This document shows, one piece after another, positions 1 through 42,663 of a stretch of DNA of 42,663 nt. The position numbers and the translations under genes were made by a program. The notes beneath the pieces are model-generated. The model saw only the letters and a program-made list of their open reading frames with translations. It was not told the DNA's origin and did no database searches. How positions within the stretch are numbered: position 1 is the stretch's first letter; each line of letters opens with the position of its first letter. This DNA is from a virus, in the IMG/VR virus record IMGVR_UViG_3300045988_096562; one strand, given 5' to 3'.

Positions 1-119
1 CAATTAAGTTAGATAATTGCTGTATTTATTGATTTTGTGTGTGCCTTTTAAATGCCACGCCATCTTGAGGGGGTGGTGAGCTAACGCTCGTGCGGGTTCA
101 AGTCCCGCCAACCGCACCA
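1..119. repeat. Terminal direct repeat, copy 1 (identical to 42545..42663)
   Basis: Read directly. Both copies run caattaagttagataattgc...ggttcaagtcccgccaaccgcacca and coincide exactly with the window ends. This implies a circular or terminally redundant unit of 42,544 bp. Confidence 0.95.
54..119 (+). tRNA. 3' partial tRNA-Leu(GAG)-like fragment; probable attP core
   Basis: Anticodon stem ccatc/ggtgg (60-64/72-76) with loop ttGAGgg (U33, G37). Long variable arm gagc-taac-gctc (78-89). T arm gcggg-ttcaagt-cccgc (92-108). Acceptor 3' strand caaccgc, discriminator A and CCA (109-119). No matching 5' acceptor strand (gcggttg) and no D-loop lie upstream, so it is only a fragment. Confidence 0.6.
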
Positions 120-129
120 AGCTAACAAA

Positions 130-168
130 ATAAGGGCTTATAGGTAATTCTATAAGCCCTTATTTTTG
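130..168 (+). terminator. Intrinsic terminator just after the tRNA-like end, possibly bidirectional
   Basis: 13-bp stem ataagggcttata/tataagcccttat with an 8-nt loop, followed by tttt on the + strand. The - strand reading is also followed by a T-rich run, so it could also terminate int. Confidence 0.7.
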
Positions 169-214
169 TTTGACATCATAAAATCTTGCGTGGTTTGACA
201 TCATTTTGACATCA
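168..214 (+). promoter_or_regulatory. Three direct copies of TTGACATCA (170-178, 195-203, 206-214); candidate integrase arm-type sites (P' arm)
   Basis: Exact 9-mer repeated. The 21-nt tandem unit tttgacatcattttgacatca (194-214) recurs at 42483-42503 on the other side of the core. The last copy overlaps the int stop codon. Confidence 0.55.
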
Positions 215-1285
215 GAATATTTTAGAGATACGTTCTACGATGTCATCTTCCATTTTAGGAGTGACGTGTGAGTAGGTATCCATTGTTTCTTGAAATGAAG
301 CATGTCCTAGACGTTCCTGTATGGCTTTCATATTTGCCCCGTTTTCGATGAGGAGTGTGGCGTGGGTGTGTCTGGTCCCATGCATGGTAAAAGTTGGCTT
401 ACCGATTAAATTGGCGTACTTCTTACATAACTTGCTGACTTCATCAGGGCAGCGAGGAGCGCCTTTAATGCCTGGGAATACCAGATCATTATTAATCCAG
501 TTCATTGTCTTAATTCTGCGTTTATCTATGACTATTTTATGCTTCATAAGTTCCTGAAGTGTATCCGTATCAATGGCTATTATCCGTTTTGATGATGTAG
601 TTTTAGTTGTATTTGATATAACTGCAGTTGATCCGATTTTGAGTGCTGTTTGTGAAATGGATATGGTAGATTTCTTAAAGTCGATATCAGACCATCTTAG
701 GCCTAATAATTCAGATCGTCGCATGCCGGTTGCAAATGCTAATTTAAATAATGCATGGTGTTCGGAATTTGATATATTTGATAGAAAATTCTTAACCTCA
801 TCTGCAGATAGCGTTACCATATGACGAACTTTAACCTGCTTTGGCCTATCTAGGTTACGCATATAATTTTTGGGGATGATATCATCCTTTACAGCCTGTT
901 CTAATATCGAGCTCAGTATTGTCATGGTGTAGGAGATGGTTCTTGATGATAATCCGTCCATCGACTCAAAGACATACCGTAATGTATTTGGTTTAATCTC
1001 AGCTAGCTTTACATTGCCAATTTTGTTTCTAATATAACGATTAATAATCCCTGTATAACTTTGATAGGTGGCTGGTGTTATAGTCTTTTCCTTTAGATTC
1101 AACCATATATTAATCCAGGTGTTTAATGAGATAGTGTCATCAAAATTGGCACATGATTGATTAGCATTTACGTATTTCTCCATAGCTTCCGTAGCAGCTT
1201 TTTTTGTGCTGCCATAAAAGTATTTACGCTTGCCGTTTATCACCTTTGATACCTGGTAGCGTCCATCAGCTCGTTTTTTAGCCAT
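212..1285 (-). CDS. int: Tyrosine site-specific integrase
   Basis: 357 aa. The N-terminus AKKRADGRYQV...GKRKYFYG looks like an arm-binding domain. Catalytic signature: ATGMRRSELLGLRW (Arg), HGTRHTHATLL (H-x-x-R), LGHASFQETMDTYSHV (His/Tyr). AGGAGG RBS. Adjacent to the att region. Confidence 0.95.
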   Translation of the reverse strand: MAKKRADGRYQVSKVINGKRKYFYGSTKKAATEAMEKYVNANQSCANFDDTISLNTWINIWLNLKEKTITPATYQSYTGIINRYIRNKIGNVKLAEIKPNTLRYVFESMDGLSSRTISYTMTILSSILEQAVKDDIIPKNYMRNLDRPKQVKVRHMVTLSADEVKNFLSNISNSEHHALFKLAFATGMRRSELLGLRWSDIDFKKSTISISQTALKIGSTAVISNTTKTTSSKRIIAIDTDTLQELMKHKIVIDKRRIKTMNWINNDLVFPGIKGAPRCPDEVSKLCKKYANLIGKPTFTMHGTRHTHATLLIENGANMKAIQERLGHASFQETMDTYSHVTPKMEDDIVERISKIF

Positions 1286-1343
1286 AAAAATAACCTCCTT
1301 GGCTTAAATTTGAGTATAAGAAATAAGCCTTAGAGGATTTATG

Positions 1344-1352
1344 TGATATAAT
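1344..1352 (+). promoter_or_regulatory. Perfect extended -10 element TGaTATAAT on the + strand
   Basis: tgatataat read directly, about 60 nt upstream of a +-oriented intrinsic terminator. No good -35. The region is AT-rich, so it could be fortuitous, or it could overlap the leftward int promoter. Confidence 0.3.
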
Positions 1353-1408
1353 AATATTGGAGTAAAAATGAAATACCTTTTCTCTAAGGCTAGGTATGTA
1401 GTTTTTAG

Positions 1409-1441
1409 AAGCCCTCATTTCGGTGAGGGCTTATTTTTTTT
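1409..1441 (+). terminator. Intrinsic terminator with + strand polarity
   Basis: Stem aagccctca/tgagggctt, loop tttcgg, then an 8-9 T run on the + strand. On the - strand the hairpin is followed by ctaaaaac, so it is a poor terminator for the leftward genes. Confidence 0.6.
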
Positions 1442-2723
1442 AATCTTCAGGTGTATAGCTATCAAAAATAAAATCTATAGTTGCTCGGATCGGAGGCTTA
1501 GCACCTTTTATTTTTATTAATTTATACGCTTTAATACCTGTATTACAAATAGGAGTTGCTAATAAAGCAACTAAAAAACTATGGGTGGCGGTTTCTGCTT
1601 CAGTAAAATCCAATACAACCGTTTTACCTTCAGCTAAAGCTGGTAGGATACGTTTATCTCTTTGCTTTATAGCCTCATATTTCACCTCACAATGTTTTCC
1701 AAAATAGTTATACATATCAATAACAATTTCTTTTGAAGCATCTATATTTTTGCGAGCATCAACTTCAGCCTTTGCCTTTTGTCGCAATCTTTCAAGTTCA
1801 TCATTGATATCAAATGTTTTAAATTTATCAAATCCAATGGTCATATAAACAAACGTACCTGGCCAGGGTTGCCGAAGTGTATTTGATGTTATATCTGTTG
1901 GTGATATATGTAACAAGCCTTGACCTGAAACAATATACATATCTGCTTCTAAGGTTTTCCCTATGTTAGAAGATAGATATAACCCCATCCCGGCGTTATT
2001 TTGGCCTTCATAAGGCCGTTTAGGTGCACCAAATGTTCCTGAAATTTCGGGCTTAATGGCATACTCTAAGGCTGTCATATCAGAAGTAAATACAGAGTAT
2101 GTTTTTTCTAAATGCTTTTTTACGCCAATACCTAAGTCGGCGATTATGAATGATAACTGCCCTTTGTTTTTATACCAATTAAATTGTAATAGGGAGGGGA
2201 TAGTAGGGTTGTAGCCGTGCTCTAAGGTGTTATAGAGTAGTTCGGATACAATGTATCTCAAAGTGCCTTCATGCCCAGAAATTAAGTCCATATCAATTTG
2301 TGTAGTATAGTCCAAAATTTTATCTAATGCAGACGGGATATCTGTTGACTGATTCCGAATAGCAAACATTGGTTTATCATAAATAAAACGGAAGTTTTCT
2401 GTGCTATTTTCAAAAACATTGTAGCAACCAGGAGCCCCTAAACGGTACCACATTTGTCCAAGAGTAGATTGTTTATTACAATAAATTTTGACATAACAAC
2501 CTTTTGATTTTAAAAACCAGATATATAATATTAAGAGTGATAAAGCTTGATAATTAGCATTAACACAATTACTACCGTCAATTATTAAGCTATCGCCATC
2601 GTAAGACCAATCAAAAATAGAAAGATATGAATTAAAATCGACTAAATTTCTGTTCTTAAACGATAAAGTAGTTGGTAATTTTAAAATTCGATTTTTTCTT
2701 TTAGTGTAAATAATTTTTGACAT
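1440..2723 (-). CDS. GHKL (histidine-kinase/RsbW-like) ATPase flanked by STAS-like domains; function unknown, prophage cargo
   Basis: 427 aa. N box ELLYNTLEHG (nt 2214-2243), G1 box DLGIG (2124-2138), G2 box GMGL (1980-1991). N-terminal segment SLIIDGSNCVNANYQALSLLILYIWFLKSKGCYVKIY resembles STAS. After a coiled-coil linker, the C-terminal segment GKTVVLDFTEAETATHSFLVALL resembles the STAS-like DUF4325 family. Confidence 0.7.
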   Translation of the reverse strand: MSKIIYTKRKNRILKLPTTLSFKNRNLVDFNSYLSIFDWSYDGDSLIIDGSNCVNANYQALSLLILYIWFLKSKGCYVKIYCNKQSTLGQMWYRLGAPGCYNVFENSTENFRFIYDKPMFAIRNQSTDIPSALDKILDYTTQIDMDLISGHEGTLRYIVSELLYNTLEHGYNPTIPSLLQFNWYKNKGQLSFIIADLGIGVKKHLEKTYSVFTSDMTALEYAIKPEISGTFGAPKRPYEGQNNAGMGLYLSSNIGKTLEADMYIVSGQGLLHISPTDITSNTLRQPWPGTFVYMTIGFDKFKTFDINDELERLRQKAKAEVDARKNIDASKEIVIDMYNYFGKHCEVKYEAIKQRDKRILPALAEGKTVVLDFTEAETATHSFLVALLATPICNTGIKAYKLIKIKGAKPPIRATIDFIFDSYTPED

Positions 2724-2736
2724 TTTACGTACCTAT

Positions 2737-2765
2737 TTGATATACTAAACATATAAATTTATATA
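2737..2765 (+). promoter_or_regulatory. Candidate sigma70-type promoter TTGATA-17 nt-TATATA on the + strand
   Basis: Hexamers at 2737-2742 and 2760-2765 with a 17-nt spacer, about 80 nt upstream of a strong +-oriented terminator. The context is AT-rich, so the call is tentative. Confidence 0.3.
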
Positions 2766-2844
2766 AATGCTTAGAGACACAACATGAGTATCTTACTCGT
2801 CTCGTAGAATCGAAAGGAAATATTAAGATTTTTTCCCTTATATT

Positions 2845-2877
2845 GACCCTTGCGTATACGCAAGGGTCTTTTTCTTT
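2845..2877 (+). terminator. Strong intrinsic terminator with + strand polarity
   Basis: Perfect palindrome gacccttgcgta/tacgcaagggtc followed by tttttcttt on the + strand. The - strand reading is followed by aatataagg, with no U tract. Confidence 0.7.
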
Positions 2878-2907
2878 GTAATTACACCGCCTAACAAATC
2901 TTGGGCG

Positions 2908-3474
2908 CTATAAATTACTAACAGCGACCGAATCTACTGTGCCTGTATCTGCGAGTATCTTAACAAAGAACGTGCCTTTGATCATTGCGCCAAATTCGTT
3001 CTGTGCGTCGACAGTGCCCCGGACAGTAACACTGTTCTTATAACGGGTAACTTGCTTTATATCAAATTTAGCAGTAGAAGGGGCTTTTAATTTGGATAAT
3101 ACGGCCTCTTTAGCAGCAGCTTGATATTCTCCTTGTTGCTGATTGCTTATATACACATCGTCAATAGTATCTAGTTTTTCGCCATTTTTGTAGACTGTCG
3201 AAAAGCTGTTTTCGATTTCACTAACTTTATTATTTTTGATGCGGAAGAAAGTTTGACCGTATTTTTCATCAACTATATAATATACATCTTTTTGTCCAGC
3301 AGCCTTATTCACTTTACCGAAATCAGTGACCCCGACACTTTGTAAATCGGTAAACGCTTGTTGAGCCTGTTCTTTTGTGAGTCCTGTAGCATCCTTGATA
3401 TTATCGACAGGACCTCCGCAACCTGTAATGCACAAAGTAGCTAATAGAACCCCGGCTACTATCACTTTTTTCAT
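2908..3474 (-). CDS. Lipoprotein (candidate superinfection-exclusion or surface-modifying moron)
   Basis: 188 aa. The signal peptide MKKVIVAGVLLATLCITGCGG has a lipobox (L-C-I-T-G-C). AGGGAG-type RBS. It sits in the lysogeny operon between the ImmA-like gene and the GHKL gene. Confidence 0.8.
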   Translation of the reverse strand: MKKVIVAGVLLATLCITGCGGPVDNIKDATGLTKEQAQQAFTDLQSVGVTDFGKVNKAAGQKDVYYIVDEKYGQTFFRIKNNKVSEIENSFSTVYKNGEKLDTIDDVYISNQQQGEYQAAAKEAVLSKLKAPSTAKFDIKQVTRYKNSVTVRGTVDAQNEFGAMIKGTFFVKILADTGTVDSVAVSNL

Positions 3475-3499
3475 TTTTAATCTCCCTTTATATATTCCC

Positions 3500-3775
3500 T
3501 TATAACGCTGATAAATAATGATGGTAAAAAGCTATATTTTCCAATTCAGAGTCGTCAACGTGAGACCTACGGACCATCTGTTCAATAAGATCAACGTGTT
3601 TGTCCAAGTAAAAGTCATCATTAATAATATGAATTAGTTCATGCTTAATTTCCTCCCTCATGCGATCATGGGGGAGATTTTTATTTATGTAGATATTATG
3701 GGTATCTACATCTTCACATTCCTCCGACACAGCGTTGGCATGTGGTAAATCACAGTAAATTACATTAACTACCAA
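3500..3775 (-). CDS. Short ImmA/IrrE-like zinc metalloprotease
   Basis: 91 aa with an HEXXH motif (IKHELIHII). It lies immediately downstream of an XRE repressor, as in ImmR/ImmA pairs. TTG start with a GGGAG RBS. Confidence 0.7.
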   Translation of the reverse strand: MVVNVIYCDLPHANAVSEECEDVDTHNIYINKNLPHDRMREEIKHELIHIINDDFYLDKHVDLIEQMVRRSHVDDSELENIAFYHHYLSAL

Positions 3776-3796
3776 ATTAACACTCTCCCTTATATA

Positions 3797-4183
3797 CTAT
3801 TTATTTTTTAATTTTAATAGTTCTATATATTCAACTGCTTTCTCCATATCCTCCTTACTAATATCTTTTGCTGCAGAAAATAGCATACGGGCTCCTGGGC
3901 GTGTGCGCAAGTACTCAGCAAATTCAGCAGCTTCTTTATCTAGGTAATATTCCTCTTCGGTTTTATCTTGCCTTTCTACTAATTCCGATTTTGGCACGTG
4001 AAAATAGTTTGCCATCATTTCAATTTTATCTATTCTTGGGTATGTATTACCTTTCAACCAATCTGTTAAAGTAGTGTATTTAAACCCTAAATCAGCACAT
4101 AATTTATTTCTGTCTATTCCGCGGCTATCCATTAGCCTTTGGAGATTTTGCGCCATAATTTCCTTATTGCCTAAATCACTCAT
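3797..4183 (-). CDS. XRE-family HTH repressor (CI/ImmR-like)
   Basis: 128 aa. The HTH LQRLMDSRGIDRNKLCADLGFKYTTLTDWLKG is followed by a C-terminal extension. It is divergent from a Cro-like gene across an operator-rich spacer. Confidence 0.9.
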   Translation of the reverse strand: MSDLGNKEIMAQNLQRLMDSRGIDRNKLCADLGFKYTTLTDWLKGNTYPRIDKIEMMANYFHVPKSELVERQDKTEEEYYLDKEAAEFAEYLRTRPGARMLFSAAKDISKEDMEKAVEYIELLKLKNK

Positions 4184-4236
4184 CTCAAATTTCCTCTCTA
4201 TAATAAATTCATAATAATTAATAACATAATACGATA

Positions 4237-4323
4237 TTTCCGTAATAAATTCAATATTTAAACTAAAAATTTACGATATTTTACGGAAATTTAATAGACA
4301 TTACGGTAAAACCGTAGTATACT
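4237..4323. promoter_or_regulatory. Immunity switch region: TTACGG-type operators and a rightward promoter
   Basis: Palindrome ttacggtAAAaccgta at 4301-4316 fills the spacer between -35 TAGACA (4295-4300) and -10 TATACT (4318-4323). Inverted half-sites tttccgtaa (4237-4245) and ttacggaaa (4281-4289) lie upstream, plus a degenerate ttacgatat (4271-4279). Confidence 0.65.
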
Positions 4324-4367
4324 CTAGTCATGATAATAAGTGATGTTAATAAGAAAGGAGGTAATTT

Positions 4368-4556
4368 ATGAAGTATACACTTAGAATGCTCCGCGCATCC
4401 AAGTCTTGGACACAAGCACAGGCTGCAAAAGAAATAGGCGTATCTACTGAGACTTGGGGAAATTGGGAGCGTAAGCGATCTTATCCAGATGTGCCAAATA
4501 TATCTAAGATAGAACAGGTATTCAATGTCGCTTATGATGATATTATTTTTTTATAG
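4368..4556 (+). CDS. Cro-like XRE-family HTH regulator
   Basis: 62 aa. HTH WTQAQAAKEIGVSTETWGNWERKRSYP. AAGGAGG RBS. Divergent from the repressor. Confidence 0.9.
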   Translation: MKYTLRMLRASKSWTQAQAAKEIGVSTETWGNWERKRSYPDVPNISKIEQVFNVAYDDIIFL

Positions 4557-4569
4557 CTTATTACGGTTT

Positions 4570-4586
4570 TACCGTAAATTATTTGA
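4570..4586. promoter_or_regulatory. Third operator-like palindrome TTACGGT-TTT-ACCGTAA downstream of cro
   Basis: A perfect 7+7 inverted repeat with the same half-site as the operator at 4301-4316, about 270 bp away. Confidence 0.55.
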
Positions 4587-4683
4587 ATGAAAGGGGAAAT
4601 ATGTACAACAAAAGAACTGCTGTTATTAATACAGTGATAAGTACCACATAACAAATCTTAGAAATTGTAAAGCTTATAGCTGA

Positions 4684-4716
4684 ATTAGAAAAAGAGCACA
4701 CATGTGAGTGCACTCT
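4684..4716 (-). terminator. Intrinsic terminator for the leftward small gene 4736..4945
   Basis: On the - strand, agagtgcac/gtgtgctct form a 9-bp stem with two G.U pairs that would be A.C mismatches on the + strand. A ttttct run follows. Confidence 0.6.
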
Positions 4717-4735
4717 TAATTTTGAATTCAAATAA

Positions 4736-4945
4736 TTACTTTTCAAAAGTAATGTATAAAATATCATCGGCTTGGAACAGATGTATCGTATTACCAACAA
4801 AAGTGTATTGAGTTTGATATAGTTTGAAGCTTTCAAAATCAGTGATGTCAGCCTGGTCTAGGTAATTCGACTCATGTTGGCGTATAAGTTTTAGATTTTC
4901 TATTCTGATGTATTCGCCATCTCTTAATTTGATTGTTGCTCGCAT
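4736..4945 (-). CDS. Hypothetical 69-aa protein, an autonomous leftward unit inside the rightward early region
   Basis: GGGAGG RBS 7 nt before the ATG. It has its own extended -10 upstream and its own terminator downstream. No recognisable motif. Confidence 0.7.
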   Translation of the reverse strand: MRATIKLRDGEYIRIENLKLIRQHESNYLDQADITDFESFKLYQTQYTFVGNTIHLFQADDILYITFEK

Positions 4946-4968
4946 ATAATCACCTCCCTTCTAAGGTG

Positions 4969-4976
4969 ATTATACA
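4969..4976 (-). promoter_or_regulatory. Extended -10 TGTATAAT on the - strand driving 4736..4945
   Basis: The reverse complement of attataca reads tgtataat, about 25 nt upstream of the start codon. Confidence 0.45.
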
Positions 4977-5053
4977 AACAATTATTTAAGAATACACAAA
5001 ATATTCATGAAATTTTTATGAACATCTATAAAAGGATATAAAGGAGGATTGTT

Positions 5054-5254
5054 GTGGACAGGAATAAATTATGCATAACAGTCGCTGAGGCCGCCGAATT
5101 AGCAAGCGTTCCTCAAGATGTGATTCGTCAATGGGCCGCTGACTTTGATTTTCCGTCAATGAAGATAGGGGCCCGAGGTGGCAAACGATTGATCCATTTA
5201 GATTCGTTTAATGCATGGCTAGGGAAGCGCTGCCAGGCAAGAATAGGAGAATAG
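5054..5254 (+). CDS. Excisionase-family / MerR-like HTH DNA-binding protein
   Basis: 66 aa, GTG start after AAAGGAGG. ITVAEAAELASVPQDVIRQWAADFDFPSMKIGARGGKRLIHLDSFNAWL matches the excisionase-type winged helix pattern. Confidence 0.7.
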   Translation: MDRNKLCITVAEAAELASVPQDVIRQWAADFDFPSMKIGARGGKRLIHLDSFNAWLGKRCQARIGE

Positions 5255-5256
5255 GT

Positions 5257-5415
5257 ATGAAAATGTTTTTAATTGCACTAGCAGCTTGTATGGTGTTCAT
5301 TTTGGAAGGGTCTGATATTCAAGGATATAACCTTTCAGATGGAGCATTATATTTAAGCTTCATCGCATCACTAATCTTGTTGTTATATACAGCATTTATT
5401 GAAAGGAGTGAATGA
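5257..5415 (+). CDS. Small membrane protein (52 aa, two hydrophobic helices)
   Basis: An internal ATG preceded by AGGAGA is preferred to the 5215 start, which overlaps the previous gene. Sequence MKMFLIALAACMVFIL...LSFIASLILLLYTAF. Confidence 0.55.
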   Translation: MKMFLIALAACMVFILEGSDIQGYNLSDGALYLSFIASLILLLYTAFIERSE

Positions 5416-5416
5416 T

Positions 5417-5509
5417 ATGCAATCCATCATTCAGGCGCTGTTCTTCGTTGCATTGATCATAAGCGTATGTGCATTAATTAGTAGCATATTCGTACTAATG
5501 ATGATTTAG
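5417..5509 (+). CDS. 30-aa hydrophobic peptide (below the ORF-track cutoff)
   Basis: ATG 8 nt after AAAGGAG. MQSIIQALFFVALIISVCALISSIFVLMMI forms one transmembrane helix. It is tightly packed between its neighbours. Confidence 0.45.
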   Translation: MQSIIQALFFVALIISVCALISSIFVLMMI

Positions 5510-5519
5510 TAGGTGCTAC

Positions 5520-5684
5520 ATGAAACGAGTTACATGCGCTAAGTGTGGAGTTAAATTAATTCCATATACTTACAGTTACATTTATGACGAAATAAATCGT
5601 AAGGCAATTAGAGTATGTAAACATTGCCATGATGAACATATTCGCCGTAAAAGTAAAAATGCCCTCACGCACGGCAATGCGTAA
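5520..5684 (+). CDS. 54-aa zinc-ribbon protein (below the ORF-track cutoff)
   Basis: Hand translation gives MKRVTCAKCGVKL...RVCKHCHDEHIRRKSK..., with two CxxC pairs. Confidence 0.5.
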   Translation: MKRVTCAKCGVKLIPYTYSYIYDEINRKAIRVCKHCHDEHIRRKSKNALTHGNA

Positions 5685-5735
5685 AGGGCAAAGATAAAAA
5701 TATCCTATATAAATTATACCAGATAAGGAGATAAA

Positions 5736-6125
5736 ATGCCTGAAATAAAAGCAATAAAATCTAAACCTGCTGTAAATAACTTTGATTTCAACTTTTTTTC
5801 TGATAACAAAGGCCGTAGAGGGAAGACAACTAAAGTAGCGATACATATCTGTAAAAGCTATATCAAATTATCTTTGCCGGCATATCAGAAACTAAAAGGG
5901 CCTGAATATTTTAAAGTTGGTATCGATGTTAAAAACAAAGTTATTTGCGTTATGCCTGCGCTAGCAAAAGAACCTAACATTATTAAACCTACGGCTAAAC
6001 AGATTGAACGTAATACTATTTTTATTACGAAGAGCCGCGACATAATAAATAAACTATTTGACCTCGGCATTTCTAAAGAGGTTGAGGGTAAATTAGTCGA
6101 TGGCGATCTATTATTTAAATTTTAA
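5736..6125 (+). CDS. Hypothetical early protein
   Basis: 129 aa, AAGGAG RBS, co-oriented with the early operon. No motif recognised. Confidence 0.75.
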   Translation: MPEIKAIKSKPAVNNFDFNFFSDNKGRRGKTTKVAIHICKSYIKLSLPAYQKLKGPEYFKVGIDVKNKVICVMPALAKEPNIIKPTAKQIERNTIFITKSRDIINKLFDLGISKEVEGKLVDGDLLFKF

Positions 6126-6136
6126 GGAGATTAATC

Positions 6137-6775
6137 ATGGAAAATAAAAACGTTTTAACTATTAACTTTAATAACATAGAAGATTTGGCATTGCAGATCG
6201 CGGAATGGAATGCAACTTTAAATCATCAATGCCAAGGTCCATGTATGTCGGAAAAGCCAATTGTTAAAGTAACTTCAGGCACTAGTCTGGAACTAGCAGA
6301 AAATAAACTCGAGGATACATTCAAGAAAGCAATTCAAAAGAGCAGCAAAAAGATTGCAGAAGGTATAACTCAGCTTGAAGCTAATGGTTGTAAGGTAAAA
6401 ATCTTAGAAAATGAAGTGTCAGCGCCTGCAGACGATGTTCCTGTAACAGACTTCGAAGGTAATCCGACGAAACTTAATAAAGAAGAAAAAGTTAAACCTG
6501 CTGCAGCCCCTAAACCTGCTGAAACAACAAAGGTCGAAGAACCTACTCCAGTAGAAGCCGCTCAACAAGATACAGAATTAGATGTTGCTACTGAACCTGT
6601 AGATAAAAAAGCCTTTTATAAGGAATTCCGTGAATGGATGGGTGAAGATGGGGTAAAAGCAAAAAAAGCACTTGCAATTTTTAGCAAGCATGGTGTTACT
6701 CGTCCATCTAGTGACTCTTTGACCGATGATCTTATCACCGATTTGAAATCTATCATGGCAGAGAAGGAGGCTTAA
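6137..6775 (+). CDS. Hypothetical acidic early protein with a Pro/Ala/Glu-rich linker
   Basis: 212 aa, AAGGAG RBS. Low-complexity segment PAAAPKPAETTKVEEPTPVEAAQQ. Confidence 0.75.
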   Translation: MENKNVLTINFNNIEDLALQIAEWNATLNHQCQGPCMSEKPIVKVTSGTSLELAENKLEDTFKKAIQKSSKKIAEGITQLEANGCKVKILENEVSAPADDVPVTDFEGNPTKLNKEEKVKPAAAPKPAETTKVEEPTPVEAAQQDTELDVATEPVDKKAFYKEFREWMGEDGVKAKKALAIFSKHGVTRPSSDSLTDDLITDLKSIMAEKEA

Positions 6776-6777
6776 AT

Positions 6778-7149
6778 ATGTCTAAACAACAATTTAAAAG
6801 CCAAGCAGATATATGCAAGAAGTCGCTAGACATATTACATAAGGCCATTGAAATGGACCCTGGCAACGCTGAGGAATACGAAGCCGGTATCGCGTATACC
6901 GAGGGTGTCATGAAAGCATCCAATGCGATTGTAAAGGCCTTTGATGTAGTAGAGCCACCTAAATCAGCTACCCCTAAGGATAAAACGGAAGATGCTGCAA
7001 AGGAAGAAAAGCCAAAGCGTACTCGTAAGACTAAAACGGCTAAAGAACCTGCGCCATTTGATAGCAAACCAACTATAGAAGAAACGCAACCAACGGCTGA
7101 GCCTAGTGTAGAAGAAAACTCGAACATCTTTTCCATGTTCGACGATTAA
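6778..7149 (+). CDS. Hypothetical early protein with a disordered Lys/Glu-rich tail ending NIFSMFDD
   Basis: 123 aa, AAGGAGG RBS, start 3 nt after the previous stop. Confidence 0.75.
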   Translation: MSKQQFKSQADICKKSLDILHKAIEMDPGNAEEYEAGIAYTEGVMKASNAIVKAFDVVEPPKSATPKDKTEDAAKEEKPKRTRKTKTAKEPAPFDSKPTIEETQPTAEPSVEENSNIFSMFDD

Positions 7150-7163
7150 GGCGGTGGCGTTCT

Positions 7164-8813
7164 GTGGAAACTGTGTCTAGTTTATACATCCGTAAAATGT
7201 TCGATAGCATCATAATTGAAAAACATTATGATGCTGCTTACACAACAATTCACCATTGCGATTGCAATCATACATTTGGTGGTACATGGAATCGCAAATA
7301 TAGCATGGGCTGCGGATATTATACAGGTGCGAAATATTATGTTTGCCCTAATTGTGGAACTCGCTCCGAACCATATGTTCATAAAGTAGTAATTGCATCT
7401 GATGATGAGGAACTATTTCCTAAAGAAATGTTTTTTGAAGTCGTTAATTGCAAAGACTTTCTCGATCTTCGTATTAAATATAAAGGAATCCAGCTATTTT
7501 GGGATGGAACATCTGAAGATGGCTCTTATAAAGAAGTCCTGCGTTTTGATTTCAAAGCCAGAAAAGCTTTTTATATCGATGAAGATAAGAGAAAACATGA
7601 GCTCACAGTCGAGTATATTCGTGAGTATGATAATCCGATTATGCCAATTTTAAAATACATAGGAAAATCCTATGCAGTTCATGGATTTAATAAAGAACAT
7701 TTGGCCAAACTCTTCAAAAGTCTGCGTATAACGTTTGAAAAACGCTTATCAGAACAGTGTGGATATAAAGTAAAAGATGTTTATATCCCACATTCGATTA
7801 GTGAATATGGCGGATATGGGATTTCTATGCTGGTTAATATGATCTTAAAGCTCAGCGCTCCTGACATGCCTGCTGTCACTAAAATTATTAAAAGCAACAT
7901 TAAATGGACTTCACGCTATTGGATTGGTTCTATAAGAGATCTGCATTTTTATGATTCGGTTTTAGCTATGACTAAAAAGGGGACCGGATTCTTAGAAGCA
8001 TTGCGAATTTATCATCGAGCTCCTGATAGTAAATTATTGCGTAGCATGATGGTTAATGACCCTATGATTGTTAAGCTATCAGATATGCTGAATGTTTTTA
8101 AAGATGAAAATAATCGAAGGACAATATTGACTCTTAATCGAGAAAAAGGGTTCGATGATGTATCTGCGAAAATAATTAATGCAGCTCATTTAGATGAGAA
8201 TATGGGTGTTAGGACTGAAAAAATACTTAATATGTGGCTTGGCCTTTCCAAACGATATGGTGAGCGAAATTTATTGCGATATTTGCTAAATGTCACTGCA
8301 TCAGATATCAGGGATATTGTTAATATGTACAGTCAAATAACTGGTAAGTATATAGCTCAAGTTTGGAATACTAATTGCAAGTTAAAAGACTTCCATGATG
8401 TTGTAGTTAATATTTACAACAAGCAAGAGTACGGCGACGTAATGCTTCCAGAGGTTCCTCACCTACAAGCGGATGTAAACGGAATGCATTTTATGGTCCC
8501 AAGAACTGCAGCAGAATTAATGACTGCTGGTAAACGATTAAAAAATTGTGTGGGCTCATACCGGGATAGAGTCATGAAAGGAACTACGGCAATAGTGTTA
8601 GTTATCGACGATGCTATGAAGCCGGTTGCATGCCTAGAATTGGCCAATAAGGGTAAGAAGAAAGGTCGTCAAATATTCGACTTAGTGCAGGCGAAGCTCT
8701 TCGCTAATGAAGAACTAAAAAAGAATGCTCAAATTAACTCGACGGTAATGCAATGGGCCAATCAATTGCAGATTGAGCCGCACACCATCGATGTGGATGC
8801 CACTGTTGTATAG
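7164..8813 (+). CDS. PcfJ-like protein with an N-terminal Cys/His cluster
   Basis: 549 aa, GTG start. The C-terminal AGKRLKNCVGSYRDRVMKGTTAIVLV matches the conserved PcfJ-like core. The N-terminus has HHCDCNH...CPNCG. Confidence 0.65.
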   Translation: METVSSLYIRKMFDSIIIEKHYDAAYTTIHHCDCNHTFGGTWNRKYSMGCGYYTGAKYYVCPNCGTRSEPYVHKVVIASDDEELFPKEMFFEVVNCKDFLDLRIKYKGIQLFWDGTSEDGSYKEVLRFDFKARKAFYIDEDKRKHELTVEYIREYDNPIMPILKYIGKSYAVHGFNKEHLAKLFKSLRITFEKRLSEQCGYKVKDVYIPHSISEYGGYGISMLVNMILKLSAPDMPAVTKIIKSNIKWTSRYWIGSIRDLHFYDSVLAMTKKGTGFLEALRIYHRAPDSKLLRSMMVNDPMIVKLSDMLNVFKDENNRRTILTLNREKGFDDVSAKIINAAHLDENMGVRTEKILNMWLGLSKRYGERNLLRYLLNVTASDIRDIVNMYSQITGKYIAQVWNTNCKLKDFHDVVVNIYNKQEYGDVMLPEVPHLQADVNGMHFMVPRTAAELMTAGKRLKNCVGSYRDRVMKGTTAIVLVIDDAMKPVACLELANKGKKKGRQIFDLVQAKLFANEELKKNAQINSTVMQWANQLQIEPHTIDVDATVV

Positions 8814-8822
8814 GAGAATACT

Positions 8823-10730
8823 ATGAAACTCACAAAATTAGAATTACTAAATTTTAAAGGACTAAAGTCCTTTGCCATAGATCTTAATGGCGATGTCATA
8901 ATCCGTGGTGATAATGCCACAGGGAAAACGACTGTATTCGACTCAGTGTGTTGGTTGCTATTTGGCAAAGATAGCCTGGATAGAGCTGATTTTGAAATCA
9001 AAACATTGGATGGTGGTGAACCTATCCATAAAGTCAATCACGAAGTAACAGGAACCTTTACATTAGATGAAGGTGGTACTGTTGAGCTTAAACGCGTCTA
9101 TCGTGAAAAGTACTCTTCCCCTCGTGGTGGTGAAGTTACCTTAACAGGTCACACGACAGATTATTTTGTCGATGGTGTGCCTAAGAAAGAAAAAGAATAC
9201 AAAGAAATAGTTAGTTCGCTTGTCGATGAAAGCATCTTCAAATTAATCACTAACCCTTTATATTTCAATGAGACGTACTCCTGGCAAAATCGTCGGAAGC
9301 TGCTCCTTGAAATGTGTGGCGACATTGACGATGCTGCTGTAATCAATAGTCGTGAAGACTTAAAACGATTAGCAGAGTTATTAGATGGACGCACAGTTGA
9401 TGATCAACGCAAAGTGATTGCCAGCAAGAAAACAGCTATTAATAAAGAACTGGATATGATTCCGGTTCGTATTGATGAAGCTGTGCGAAATAAACCTGAA
9501 GTTATGGCTGATAAAGATAAACTAATCAGTGATATTAAAACTTTATCAACAGGCATTGATGATGTTGAAAAACAAAAGGCAATTATTCGAAACGGTTTTA
9601 GCGCCACAGAAAAGCAGTCTAAAATTCGTGATATTAATCGTCAATTAGATGTTAGACGTTCAGATGTACTATCCGATTACCATAAGCGCAAACAACATTT
9701 GCGCAGTGAGTACGAAGCTGCACTATCTAAATTAAAGGCGACTGAAGCTGAAAGAGATAGATGTATGGATAGAAGCAACGAGCTTAATAAAGAAATTGAG
9801 CGAGAAGCCAAACGCATCGAAACTCTAACAGCTGAATTCAACACATTTAATACTCAGCAGTTTAGTAAAGAGGCTTGCCCTACTTGCGGGCAGCAATTGC
9901 CGGCGGATAAGCAGGAAAAACTCGAGGCAGAATTTAACGCTAATAAATCTAAAAAGCTTGAAGAATGGAAAGGCCTTATCGATAGTTCTGTTAAGTTAAA
10001 AGGAAACTATGAAGAGCAGCAAAAAACTATGATATCAAAAGCTGACGGCTTAATAGATGACATTACACTACAAAGCAAGGAGCGAGATATTAAACACGAA
10101 GAATATGAGGCATGTTCTGAACCTAATGTCGAAGATGATCCTACGTATACCGATTTAAAAGCACAATTATTTTTACTTGAGATTGAAGAGGAACCAGGTG
10201 CAGACACTGAAGAGCTTGCAAGACTTGAGGATGAACTTTCTTCTTTGAAATCTAAAAAAGCAAATCTCGAGACTGAATTGAATAAATTCAAATTGATTGA
10301 TGATATTGAAAATCGTGTTATCGAATTAGAAAATCAACAACAAAAACTTGTTGCCGAAAAGAATAAACTCGATGAAGCATCATATCTTATGGATGAGTTC
10401 GTAAAAGCCAAAGTTAACATGTTGGAAGAAAGCATTAATACAAGGTTTAAACTAGCTCGTTTCAAAATGTTCAACGTTATGTTGAATGGCAACGTTGAAG
10501 AATGTTGCGAAACTACCTATAAAGGGGTGCCATACCGCAGCATGAACAACGCAGCACGCATTAATGTAGGGTTAGACATTATCAATGCATTAACTAGCTA
10601 CTTCAAAGTTAATGCTCCGGTGTTCATAGACAATGCGGAAGCTGTTACTGACTTTATACCTGTTAATAGCCAAACAATTAAATTGATCGTTGATGAATCA
10701 GAACCACAATTAGTGGTTAAGGAGGGGTAA
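8823..10730 (+). CDS. Rad50/SbcC-like SMC-family ATPase
   Basis: 635 aa. Walker A GDNATGKTT at the N-terminus, a long coiled coil with a central CPTCG zinc-hook-like motif, and C-terminal Walker B PVFIDNAE. Confidence 0.85.
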   Translation: MKLTKLELLNFKGLKSFAIDLNGDVIIRGDNATGKTTVFDSVCWLLFGKDSLDRADFEIKTLDGGEPIHKVNHEVTGTFTLDEGGTVELKRVYREKYSSPRGGEVTLTGHTTDYFVDGVPKKEKEYKEIVSSLVDESIFKLITNPLYFNETYSWQNRRKLLLEMCGDIDDAAVINSREDLKRLAELLDGRTVDDQRKVIASKKTAINKELDMIPVRIDEAVRNKPEVMADKDKLISDIKTLSTGIDDVEKQKAIIRNGFSATEKQSKIRDINRQLDVRRSDVLSDYHKRKQHLRSEYEAALSKLKATEAERDRCMDRSNELNKEIEREAKRIETLTAEFNTFNTQQFSKEACPTCGQQLPADKQEKLEAEFNANKSKKLEEWKGLIDSSVKLKGNYEEQQKTMISKADGLIDDITLQSKERDIKHEEYEACSEPNVEDDPTYTDLKAQLFLLEIEEEPGADTEELARLEDELSSLKSKKANLETELNKFKLIDDIENRVIELENQQQKLVAEKNKLDEASYLMDEFVKAKVNMLEESINTRFKLARFKMFNVMLNGNVEECCETTYKGVPYRSMNNAARINVGLDIINALTSYFKVNAPVFIDNAEAVTDFIPVNSQTIKLIVDESEPQLVVKEG

Positions 10731-42482: not shown

Positions 42483-42503
42483 TTTGACATCATTTTGACA
42501 TCA
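42483..42503 (+). promoter_or_regulatory. Tandem TTGACATCA pair (P arm); candidate integrase arm-type sites
   Basis: tttgacatcattttgacatca is identical to 194-214, in the same orientation, about 40 nt before the terminal repeat. Confidence 0.55.
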
Positions 42504-42544: not shown

Positions 42545-42663
42545 CAATTAAGTTAGATAATTGCTGTATTTATTGATTTTGTGTGTGCCTTTTAAATGCC
42601 ACGCCATCTTGAGGGGGTGGTGAGCTAACGCTCGTGCGGGTTCAAGTCCCGCCAACCGCACCA
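42545..42663. repeat. Terminal direct repeat, copy 2 (identical to 1..119)
   Basis: Read directly; see copy 1. Confidence 0.95.
42598..42663 (+). tRNA. Second copy of the 3' partial tRNA-Leu(GAG)-like fragment
   Basis: Same sequence as 54-119. It is the same locus if the molecule is circular. Confidence 0.6.

Follow-up and report, generated by a model that had tools for sequence, protein, structure and literature searches.

The closest described relatives of the gene presented here are VapK and CapK, two kinases reported in 2026 (Chambers et al., EMBO J; PMC13373217). Each phosphorylates a separate STAS protein, with a freed PIN toxin (VapKSC) or a repressor (CapKS) as the output, and it was only in that year that such pairs of a STAS-GHKL kinase and a STAS substrate were recognised as immunity regulators. 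The residue phosphorylated is an absolutely conserved Ser/Thr with which STAS helix alpha2 begins (S48 in VapS, S54 in CapS), and the catalytic GHKL asparagine of CapK is N218. Activation by ssDNA was shown for CapK and inferred for VapK; the predicted ssDNA groove holds a conserved aromatic residue (W68 in CapK, F54 in VapK) and basic residues. CapK responds to DNA damage, and CapKS is often sandwiched beside restriction-modification (R-M) systems (PMC13373217).

In this work, we describe a third and widespread form, in which one polypeptide holds both the kinase and its substrate, with no encoded output. The gene lies in a temperate Veillonella phage (IMG/VR record IMGVR_UViG_3300045988_096562), of which we analysed a stretch of 42,663 nucleotides, hereafter the window. 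A fusion of the two proteins is plausible, because vapK is followed directly by vapS, 4 nt away, and vapS by vapC, and the summed length of VapK and VapS (297 + 116 aa) is near the 427 aa found here. We read the gene as a one-polypeptide VapK-VapS pair, that is, a kinase tethered to its substrate, which likely serves as an anti-phage or stress switch; we give this reading a probability of roughly 0.55. The features of the locus are collected in Table 1. The coordinates given for the gene in the initial annotation are right, and all the peptides quoted there are found in the 427-aa product.

Table 1. The fusion gene, its domains and its surroundings in the window (positions are those of the window)
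Feature	Position	Strand	Basis
Direct terminal repeat, 119 bp, identical copy at 42545-42663	1..119	.	Exact repeat search
Tyrosine integrase gene, downstream neighbour	212..1285	-	Phage_integrase, 108.5 bits, and SAM-like N-domain
Hairpin, 10-bp stem, just past the stop codon and ahead of the integrase gene	1409..1432	.	Terminator-like scan and sequence reading; T-run on the + strand side
Whole gene: fused VapK-like kinase and VapS-like STAS protein (427 aa; stop codon 1440-1442)	1440..2723	-	ORF list; phrog_5816 match
C-terminal DUF4325 STAS domain (VapS-like), aa 331-427	1443..1733	-	PF14213; hhalign; PDB match
S382 codon, candidate phospho-acceptor dyad, start of helix alpha2	1578-1580	-	
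H381 codon, candidate phospho-acceptor dyad, start of helix alpha2	1581-1583	-	
Charged helical linker, aa 298-330	1734..1832	-	AF2 secondary structure; conservation
GHKL (Bergerat-fold) kinase domain, aa 151-297	1833..2273	-	HATPase_c/HATPase_c_2; SpoIIAB fold and sequence match; conserved boxes; VapK/CapK collinearity
N165 codon of the GHKL domain	2229-2231	-	
N-terminal STAS-like domain, aa 1-124	2352..2723	-	Domain-only AF2 model and Foldseek; VapK alignment; conservation
Hairpin, 10-bp GC-rich stem, in the 184-nt spacer between lipoprotein and fusion genes	2845..2868	.	Terminator-like scan and sequence reading; T-run on the + strand side
Lipoprotein gene, upstream	2908-3474		
ImmA-type Peptidase_M78 gene, upstream immunity module	3500-3775	-	Pfam
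XRE-family repressor gene, upstream immunity module	3797-4183	-	Pfam
Cro-like HTH gene, divergent	4368-4556		Pfam

The whole of the 427 aa is explained by the order STAS, GHKL, linker, STAS in a full-length AF2 model (pLDDT 79.5). Pfam and Foldseek searches with AF2 models agree on these three modules, and with them bear out what had been proposed from the letters alone, that a kinase and its STAS substrate are joined in one polypeptide. The protein matches phrog_5816 over its full length (E 4e-103), and among its 714 homologues the length is conserved. The linker is the least conserved segment, with a mean top-residue frequency of 0.44 in 52 dereplicated homologues; AF2 assigns it helices at aa 298-303 and 306-325, the latter a single, charged helix of low-to-medium confidence, where the initial annotation had put a coiled coil.

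The catalytic residues of the kinase half are intact. The N box reads E161-L-L-Y-N165-T-L-E-H169-G170, the G1 box D196-L-G198-I-G200 and the G2 box N243-A-G245-M-G247-L, and E161, N165, H169, G170, D196, G198, G200, N243, G245 and G247 are each found in all 52 of the dereplicated homologues. This conservation points to an active kinase. The AF2 model leaves the ATP lid (aa 227-245) disordered, and the matches to HATPase_c (E 6e-4) and HATPase_c_2 (E 9e-4) both fall below their own Pfam cut-offs. When the N-terminal 145 aa are modelled alone (AF2, pLDDT 84.9), the top Foldseek matches are all STAS domains, with modest E-values of about 1e-2: 3lkl (TM 0.71), SLC26 STAS, 3oiz, TM1442, MlaB and RsbV. 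Sister families also give weak Pfam STAS_2 matches over this module. Its canonical phospho-site is occupied by Y58, not by Ser/Thr; C53 and Y58 are nearly invariant, the latter present in 50 of 52 homologues.

Both domains of the kinase half have a counterpart in VapK. The family profile aligns with the VapK family profile from aa 12 to 300, over nearly all of VapK (hhalign, 96.8%, E 2.7e-10, 267 columns), and with the single VapK sequence at 91.3%. The GHKL domain also matches CapK (hhalign, E 2.8e-4) and is collinear with the GHKL domains of VapK and CapK. Likewise, phrog_3364 is matched by VapK (E 4.9e-33), by CapK (E 1.3e-11) and by aa 10-309 of the fusion (E 1.8e-26). Both phrog_3364, a phage family of VapK/CapK-like proteins, and phrog_5816 are annotated as 'unknown function'. 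The view that no characterised family fits this protein needs to be revised, as VapKSC is a relative in both halves and CapK of CapKS a more distant one. The relationship is old: with identity of only about 21%, the sequences mark the fusion family as a separate lineage, anciently diverged from VapK. Used as a phmmer query, VapK matched five members of the fusion family, weakly, and its own relatives (120 of 120 among the matches listed) are about 295 aa long and have no DUF4325. In the extended family, the N terminus of one member (P0322) carries an additional small helical domain resembling the HTH of CapK.

The SpoIIAB/RsbW type of fold named in the initial annotation is also recovered. The best PDB folds for the AF2 model are those of SpoIIAB (1l0o, 1til and 1th8; Foldseek, E 4e-4, TM 0.64 normalised to target), a search of PDB sequences with the full-length profile gave SpoIIAB alone (E 0.11), and the best NCBIfam match is the anti-sigma F factor (E 4e-4). 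SpoIIAB is therefore the best solved match of the kinase domain in both fold and sequence, and one could propose classical partner switching, where the GHKL domain would hold a host or phage sigma factor unless its own unphosphorylated STAS domain engages it. We think this very unlikely, however. The NCBIfam match reaches 20 bits, far under the cut-off of 135, and by profile comparison VapK and CapK, which are not anti-sigma factors, are related to the fusion much more closely than the anti-sigma kinases of sporulation or stress are. Furthermore, neither a sigma factor nor a PP2C phosphatase gene occurs in the neighbourhoods examined or among the commonest neighbour families, and the earlier idea that the protein modulates a host sigma-factor cascade thus has no support.

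The C-terminal half is related to VapS. DUF4325 (PF14213) is matched at aa 357-412 with 29.2 bits against a cut-off of 23 in a full-length Pfam scan, and with 32.7 bits when the domain is scanned alone; VapS itself scores 62.7 bits. A profile of the domain aligns with the VapS family over aa 334-411 (hhalign, 95.2%, E 2.7e-8), and VapS (9z7o) is its best match among 177,635 PDB sequences, while CapS has no detectable similarity to the fusion. H381 and S382 are each invariant (52/52), and S382 sits at the start of a predicted helix (AF2, aa 381-402); gapless profile alignments set the phospho-serine S48 of VapS on H381, not on S382. The alignment stops at VapS residue 79, or aa 411 of the fusion, beyond which 16 residues are left in the fusion (to aa 427) against 37 in VapS. 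The fusion ends with the STAS fold, and the C-terminal inhibitory helix of VapS (aa 94-116) is absent. We found no VapC-like ORF (phmmer, E<=0.01) and no free VapS-like ORF in six-frame searches of the window and 92 loci, a PIN domain in only 2 of 140 neighbours, and no fused effector domain in the best 150 representatives, the longest of which has 543 aa.

In the candidate ssDNA groove, the column of the invariant VapK aromatic is taken in the fusion family by N55, a polar residue that varies, with Y58 three residues further on, and the equivalents of CapK K185 and K187 are basic in 56% and 71% of members, respectively (the residue numbering in the source appendix is offset). As N55 stands at the column aligned with the stacking aromatic and the lysine equivalents are basic in only part of the members, the trigger may differ from ssDNA.

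The position of the gene in the phage was earlier described as that of cargo between the integrase and the immunity genes, and the flanking Pfam matches agree with this. The ImmA-type/XRE pair is present in 13 related loci as well. The terminal repeat, which ends in a fragment like the 3' end of a tRNA and is flanked by TTTGACATCA repeats, is likely the attP core, judging from these sequence features; a complete tRNA was not found. A scan for sigma-70 promoters did not rise above shuffled expectation, and megablast of positions 1-8000 against 50,697 phage records gave no match.

This setting raises the question of whether the protein is a sensor for the prophage life cycle, feeding a damage or superinfection signal into the choice between lysis and lysogeny, for example by prompting ImmA to cleave the XRE repressor, or by modulating integrase or excision. 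Prophage copies do lie inside the lysogeny module, beside a recombinase and, in relatives with 72% identity (locus L073), beside ImmA, and the related CapK responds to DNA damage. That said, the same slot is shared by unrelated repressors and recombinases: ImmA/XRE with a tyrosine integrase in the phage studied here and in L073, an HTH repressor and a lipoprotein with a tyrosine integrase in L001, and CI/S24 with a large serine recombinase in L096. Such variety argues for cargo and not for a co-evolved regulator, and most of the 58 dereplicated loci have no integrase within 7 kb, so that we find this explanation quite improbable. The integrase was also considered as a functional partner and rejected; it occurs in 7 of the 58 loci and belongs to differing families, including a serine recombinase. 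The lipoprotein was rejected too, being present in only two loci, and in L073 the fusion gene follows directly after ImmA.

The fusion family is widespread but patchily distributed. In a library of 1.84 billion proteins it has 64 representatives at E<=1e-30 and 498 at E<=1e-10. Members occur in phages and on chromosomes, in nine or more phyla with identities of 40-50%, and 28 viral contigs carry them. Across the 58 dereplicated loci there is no recurrent partner gene other than integrases. R-M or defence neighbours are found in Parabeggiatoa, Verrucomicrobiota, Lysobacteraceae and cyanobacteria. In both Calothrix and Nostoc the fusion gene belongs to an extended run of co-directional genes, within which it is translationally coupled; the run also encodes type-I-like M and S, a HerA-like ATPase, a Ser/Thr kinase and a protein of 1442 aa, besides several unannotated genes. 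We considered MADS for this cyanobacterial island and rejected it, as the weak matches to mad2, mad5 and mad8 are better explained by type I M/S and HerA models; the kinase-STAS gene itself matched no mad model. Many copies lie amid housekeeping genes. In Acidobacteria this housekeeping synteny is kept, an arrangement that fits a general stress role and defence equally well.

A defence module had also been suggested from the sequence. In PADLOC-DB v2.0.0 the single match is a partial one to DrmA, and no defence model is matched significantly over its full length. The model concerned, PDLC02567, is aligned at positions 139-382 of 1750 with aa 154-413 of the fusion (E 3.7e-6, 14% of the model), and a Calothrix homologue matches in the same way. 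This suggests that the kinase-STAS cassette may also occur near the N terminus of a large helicase used in defence. A literature search on DUF4325, STAS and GHKL in defence, CapK/VapK and anti-phage HATPases retrieved no description of the fused form, and a BFVD fold search gave no annotated function. Phages in BFVD also encode stand-alone DUF4325 and GHKL proteins.

Taken with this, the translational coupling in Calothrix and Nostoc, the type I MTase gene that abuts the fusion gene in L056, the type IIG R-M gene that follows it in L055, the GHKL and DUF4325-like region of the DrmA model and the known habit of CapKS of adjoining R-M systems (PMC13373217) could mean that the protein is a regulatory subunit of neighbouring R-M-like or defence systems, as CapKS is for downstream operons, with the prophage copies orphaned or acting on unlinked targets. 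We consider this distinctly unlikely, since the fusion has no DNA-binding domain, its neighbours change with every lineage and many copies stand alone, with housekeeping genes around them or with the repressor immediately on one side and the integrase on the other.

We propose that the fusion is most likely a self-contained phospho-switch in phage defence or the stress response. A signal arising from phage infection or DNA damage would bind the groove between the N-terminal STAS domain and the kinase and activate the latter. The active kinase would then phosphorylate the tethered STAS domain at the H381-S382 dyad, with S382 the favoured site, and this would break or make a protein contact mediated by the STAS domain. 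Because none of the known outputs is present and the gene moves from phylum to phylum by itself, the contact may lie within the protein, where the kinase would let go of a pseudo-substrate or the oligomeric state would change, or it may involve some target that is widely conserved and encoded elsewhere. Carried as a separate piece of cargo next to attP and the integrase in temperate phages, and near R-M genes in other genomes, such a switch would probably benefit the lysogen. Genomic context and homology are what point to a defence or exclusion function.

A variant of this scheme, possible although we hold it to be unlikely, makes the GHKL kinase itself the effector of a one-polypeptide abortive-infection or toxin-antitoxin device, in which the tethered STAS domain would be a pseudo-substrate 'antitoxin' in cis that a trigger other than ssDNA releases. 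Autophosphorylation on S382, or on H381 (unusual for this class of kinase), would free the kinase, which might phosphorylate essential host or phage proteins or sequester a conserved target, as SpoIIAB does sigma F. Being phage-borne, the gene might instead encode a counter-defence decoy that soaks up the activating signal or mimics VapS or CapS, and so silences host VapKSC or CapKS immunity; the stand-alone DUF4325 and GHKL proteins of phages and the carriage of VapKSC-type systems by prophages would suit such a role. However, the fully conserved catalytic residues favour an active kinase over a sponge, the helix with which VapS blocks VapC is missing and many copies are chromosomal and outside phages, all of which makes a decoy extremely improbable.

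Returning to the phospho-switch, the target of the fusion is of particular interest. Finding it would tell whether the module alone can be an effector, and would establish, in Veillonella, a genus abundant in the human mouth and gut, a new defence or stress switch made up of a single prophage gene. The tethered geometry is also a simple system in which to study how these kinases are triggered.

The comparison with known systems can be drawn as follows. Among solved structures, SpoIIAB-SpoIIAA and RsbW-RsbV come closest to the kinase and to both STAS-like domains, and they share the E-x3-N-x3-H-G pattern of the N box. They work with sigma factor and PP2C partners, neither of which is encoded near the fusion gene, whereas the fusion has an extra N-terminal STAS domain, joins kinase and antagonist in one chain and is a mobile stand-alone gene. 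The DISARM DrmA variant PDLC02567 has the GHKL and DUF4325-like N-terminal region in common with the fusion, but adds a helicase/DUF1998 part and partner genes that the fusion does without. In CapKS the kinase likewise acts on a STAS serine at the start of helix alpha2, and 'H-S382-F' of the fusion recalls 'S-S54-F' of CapS. CapKS differs in its N-terminal HTH and its wHTH output, both missing from the fusion, and in lying upstream of an immune operon, whereas the next gene here is the integrase.

VapKSC differs from the fusion in keeping kinase and STAS protein separate, in its VapC toxin (there is no PIN gene near the fusion gene in the phage), in the inhibitory helix of VapS, which the fusion lacks, and in the ssDNA-stacking aromatic, which is not conserved at the aligned column of the fusion. 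The two are alike in the N-terminal STAS and GHKL domains, collinear over the whole of VapK, in the DUF4325 common to VapS and the fusion C-terminus, in the order of kinase before STAS protein, and in their contexts, as both occur in defence neighbourhoods and as prophage cargo, VapKSC-type systems in enterobacteria being prophage cargo themselves.

The kinase-STAS gene, which is prophage cargo, encodes a protein of 427 aa: a variant of the CapK/VapK-CapS/VapS kinase-STAS module that is fused and lacks an output. The initial annotation had read it as a STAS-like domain, a GHKL ATPase and a DUF4325-like STAS domain, and every peptide it quoted is present in the ORF. This three-module reading is confirmed by Pfam, by the invariant GHKL boxes and by AlphaFold2 fold matches. 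In Pfam, the DUF4325 domain scores 29.2 bits (gathering score 23), and the GHKL models HATPase_c and HATPase_c_2 match just under their gathering scores. The best solved fold for the full-length model (pLDDT 79.5) is SpoIIAB (E 4e-4, TM 0.64 normalised to the target), with STAS domains also among the matches; an anti-sigma partner switch was one of the roles considered. When the N-terminal 145 aa were modelled separately (pLDDT 84.9), the top fold matches were exclusively STAS domains (3lkl with TM 0.71, SLC26 STAS, 3oiz, TM1442, MlaB and RsbV), at modest E-values of about 1e-2; in sister families this module gives weak Pfam STAS_2 matches. The proposed coiled-coil nature of the linker is not established: it is modelled as one charged helix and is the least conserved segment of the protein.

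Chambers et al. (EMBO J 2026, PMC13373217) describe CapK (HTH-STAS-GHKL) as an ssDNA-activated kinase whose substrate is Ser54 of the repressor CapS (STAS-wHTH). For VapK (STAS-GHKL) they propose Ser48 of VapS, a STAS domain with a C-terminal helix, as the target, phosphorylation of which would release the PIN toxin VapC. With the sequences taken from the appendix of that paper, the family profile aligned window protein aa 12-300 with nearly all of VapK (267 columns, 96.8% probability, E 2.7e-10 against the VapK-family profile). The C-terminal profile matched the VapS-family profile (95.2%, E 2.7e-8), and VapS (9z7o), a strong DUF4325 member at 62.7 bits, was its best match among all 177,635 PDB sequences. 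The whole protein matches phrog_5816 and its aa 10-309 match phrog_3364, both annotated as unknown function; phrog_3364 is also matched by VapK (E 4.9e-33) and CapK (E 1.3e-11). The VapK locus runs vapK, a 4-nt gap, vapS and vapC, and VapK plus VapS (297+116 aa) come near the length of the window protein. The homology of both halves, this gene order and the summed length identify the protein as a VapK-like kinase fused with a VapS-like STAS domain. Kinase-STAS fusions are not mentioned in PMC13373217, nor were any found elsewhere in the literature searched. The sole PADLOC match is partial (aa 154-413 against the N-terminal region of one DrmA model). The first interpretation, a possible self-contained sensor and switch matched to no characterised defence family, is partly supported, and it is sharpened by this CapK/VapK-CapS/VapS placement.

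The N box (E161, N165, H169, G170), G1 (D196, G198, G200) and G2 (N243, G245, G247) are invariant in a 25-homologue alignment, and likewise in 52 of 52 dereplicated homologues drawn from all fetched loci. Outside these boxes, the non-canonical motifs S-G-T-F (in the ATP lid), H-I-S-P and W-P-G are also invariant in 52 of 52, which is unusually strong conservation for a mobile gene across at least nine phyla.

Judging from homology, the protein is most likely a stimulus-activated Ser kinase acting on its own tethered STAS domain; phosphorylation of that domain would then change a STAS-mediated protein contact. Helix alpha2 begins with an invariant H381-S382 pair, the candidate phospho-acceptor. 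In gapless profile alignments VapS S48 falls on H381, whereas the 'S-S54-F' pattern of CapS matches 'H-S382-F' of the window protein and so favours S382. The SpoIIAA pattern 'S-S58-G' matches it likewise. S382 is the favoured putative acceptor, with H381 as the alternative. The trigger is uncertain: the ssDNA-stacking aromatic of CapK/VapK aligns with the variable polar N55, Y58 three residues later is nearly invariant, and the equivalents of two CapK lysines are only partly conserved. A prophage induction sensor was also considered.

The window holds a complete temperate phage genome of about 42.5 kb; an exact 119-bp direct terminal repeat indicates that this genome is complete and circular. 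The repeat, whose end beside the integrase is a tRNA 3'-end-like fragment (GGTTCAAGTCCCGCCAACCGCACCA), is probably the attP core. Three copies of the motif TTTGACATCA lie on one side and two on the other; these copies are therefore candidate arm-type integrase sites. The phage has Veillonella as its host genus, and homologues in this genus share 76-82% identity with the window protein. All genes of the left arm run leftward, in the order tyrosine integrase, kinase-STAS gene, lipoprotein, ImmA-type Peptidase_M78 and XRE repressor, and a Cro-like HTH faces this arm. The gene is set off by spacers of 184 nt and 154 nt and by GC-rich hairpins on either side; their T-runs are on the opposite strand, so no more is concluded than that the gene forms a discrete unit.

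The interval from repressor to kinase-STAS gene contains a second cargo slot. This slot holds a 188-aa lipoprotein in the window (lipobox LATLCITGCGG, without a Pfam match) and an unrelated DUF3862/BLIP-like lipoprotein at the matching position of L001, a homologue-carrying locus; both may be superinfection-exclusion candidates. Elsewhere in the window, an excisionase-like HTH_17 gene lies about 3.8 kb from int on the opposite strand, and a 549-aa PcfJ-like protein is encoded in the early rightward region, followed by one of 635 aa that has an AAA_29 P-loop at its N-terminus.

Coordinates of features in the window and in related loci
Feature	Locus	Position (nt)	Strand	Residues (aa)
Terminal repeat	window	1-119 and 42545-42663
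TTTGACATCA repeats	window	170-214 and 42483-42503
Kinase-STAS gene	window	1440-2723	-
GHKL model matches	window			152-266
S-G-T-F region	window	~2031-2051		225-231
H-I-S-P	window	~1899-1910		272-275
W-P-G	window	~1857-1865		287-289
Linker helix	window			306-325
DUF4325 domain	window			357-412
Lipoprotein	window	2908-3474	-
HTH_17 gene	window	5054-5254
PcfJ-like and AAA_29 genes	window	7164-10730	+
Lipoprotein	L001	7080-7670
Calothrix/Nostoc island	L004	1440-17269
Calothrix/Nostoc island	L005	389-21269
vapK-vapS-vapC	L093, L094 (E. coli)	5001-6860

The core family comprises 714 clusters at 90% identity and 64 representatives at E<=1e-30; a cut-off of E<=1e-10 widens the set to 498 representatives, among them sister families of like STAS/GHKL/DUF4325 layout. 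Homologues occur in Veillonella, Lachnospiraceae, cyanobacteria, Acidobacteriota, several proteobacterial orders, Verrucomicrobiota, Saccharibacteria, Leptospiraceae and others, with 40-50% identity across these taxa, and on 28 viral contigs. Prophage copies fill the repressor-recombinase interval of lysogeny modules that are unrelated to one another: ImmA/XRE with a tyrosine integrase (window, L073), an HTH repressor and lipoprotein with a different tyrosine integrase (L001), and CI/S24 with a large serine recombinase (L096). The commonest neighbour families are integrase, HTH_3 and Peptidase_S24 (140 neighbours, 45 loci). One homologue abuts a type I methyltransferase (L056), another is followed by a type IIG R-M gene (L055) and a third lies near a PD-T4-6-like kinase (L047). 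A regulatory subunit of such adjacent systems was considered as an alternative role. Neighbour clustering over 58 dereplicated loci found no recurrent partner besides integrases. In Pyrinomonadaceae and relatives a solo kinase-STAS gene lies in synteny between acyl-CoA dehydrogenase and MeaB, amid housekeeping genes (Acidobacteriota loci L007, L008, L021, L022, L024, L025, L028), which suggests that it is retained by vertical descent and perhaps serves in general stress in this group.

Calothrix and Nostoc carry a long, co-directional island with type-I-like M and S genes, about six unannotated genes, the kinase-STAS gene (translationally coupled, overlapping its upstream neighbour), a 1442-aa protein without a match in Pfam or PADLOC, a HerA/DUF87 ATPase and a Ser/Thr kinase. 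Its similarities to mad2, mad5 and mad8 are no more than weak. The L005 copy is interrupted by an IS66 transposase, and its large gene is split. The island is possibly a multi-gene defence system not yet described. Several of the loci L059-L064 have partial-query or low-identity matches: for example, Nostoc L060 matches aa 11-209 only, and L062, at 34% identity, is called as split ORFs. L063 and L064 are cut by contig ends, and others are possibly decayed copies.

No VapC-like or free VapS-like ORF was found in the window or 92 related loci, no wHTH or similarity to CapS in the window protein, and no effector-sized extension among the best 150 representatives. Because the gene moves alone between phyla, its output has to be either internal or directed at a widely conserved target. 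Genomic context and the VapKSC precedent suggest a role in defence or as a stress switch; a counter-defence decoy is a less likely alternative. This widespread family poses a clear, testable question, namely what the kinase-STAS switch controls.

In VapS a helix blocks VapC, whereas the window protein ends with the STAS fold and so lacks that helix. In two E. coli loci, an operon of the characterised vapK-vapS-vapC type adjoins P2-like tail-fibre and tail-assembly genes, so that operon is itself prophage hotspot cargo.
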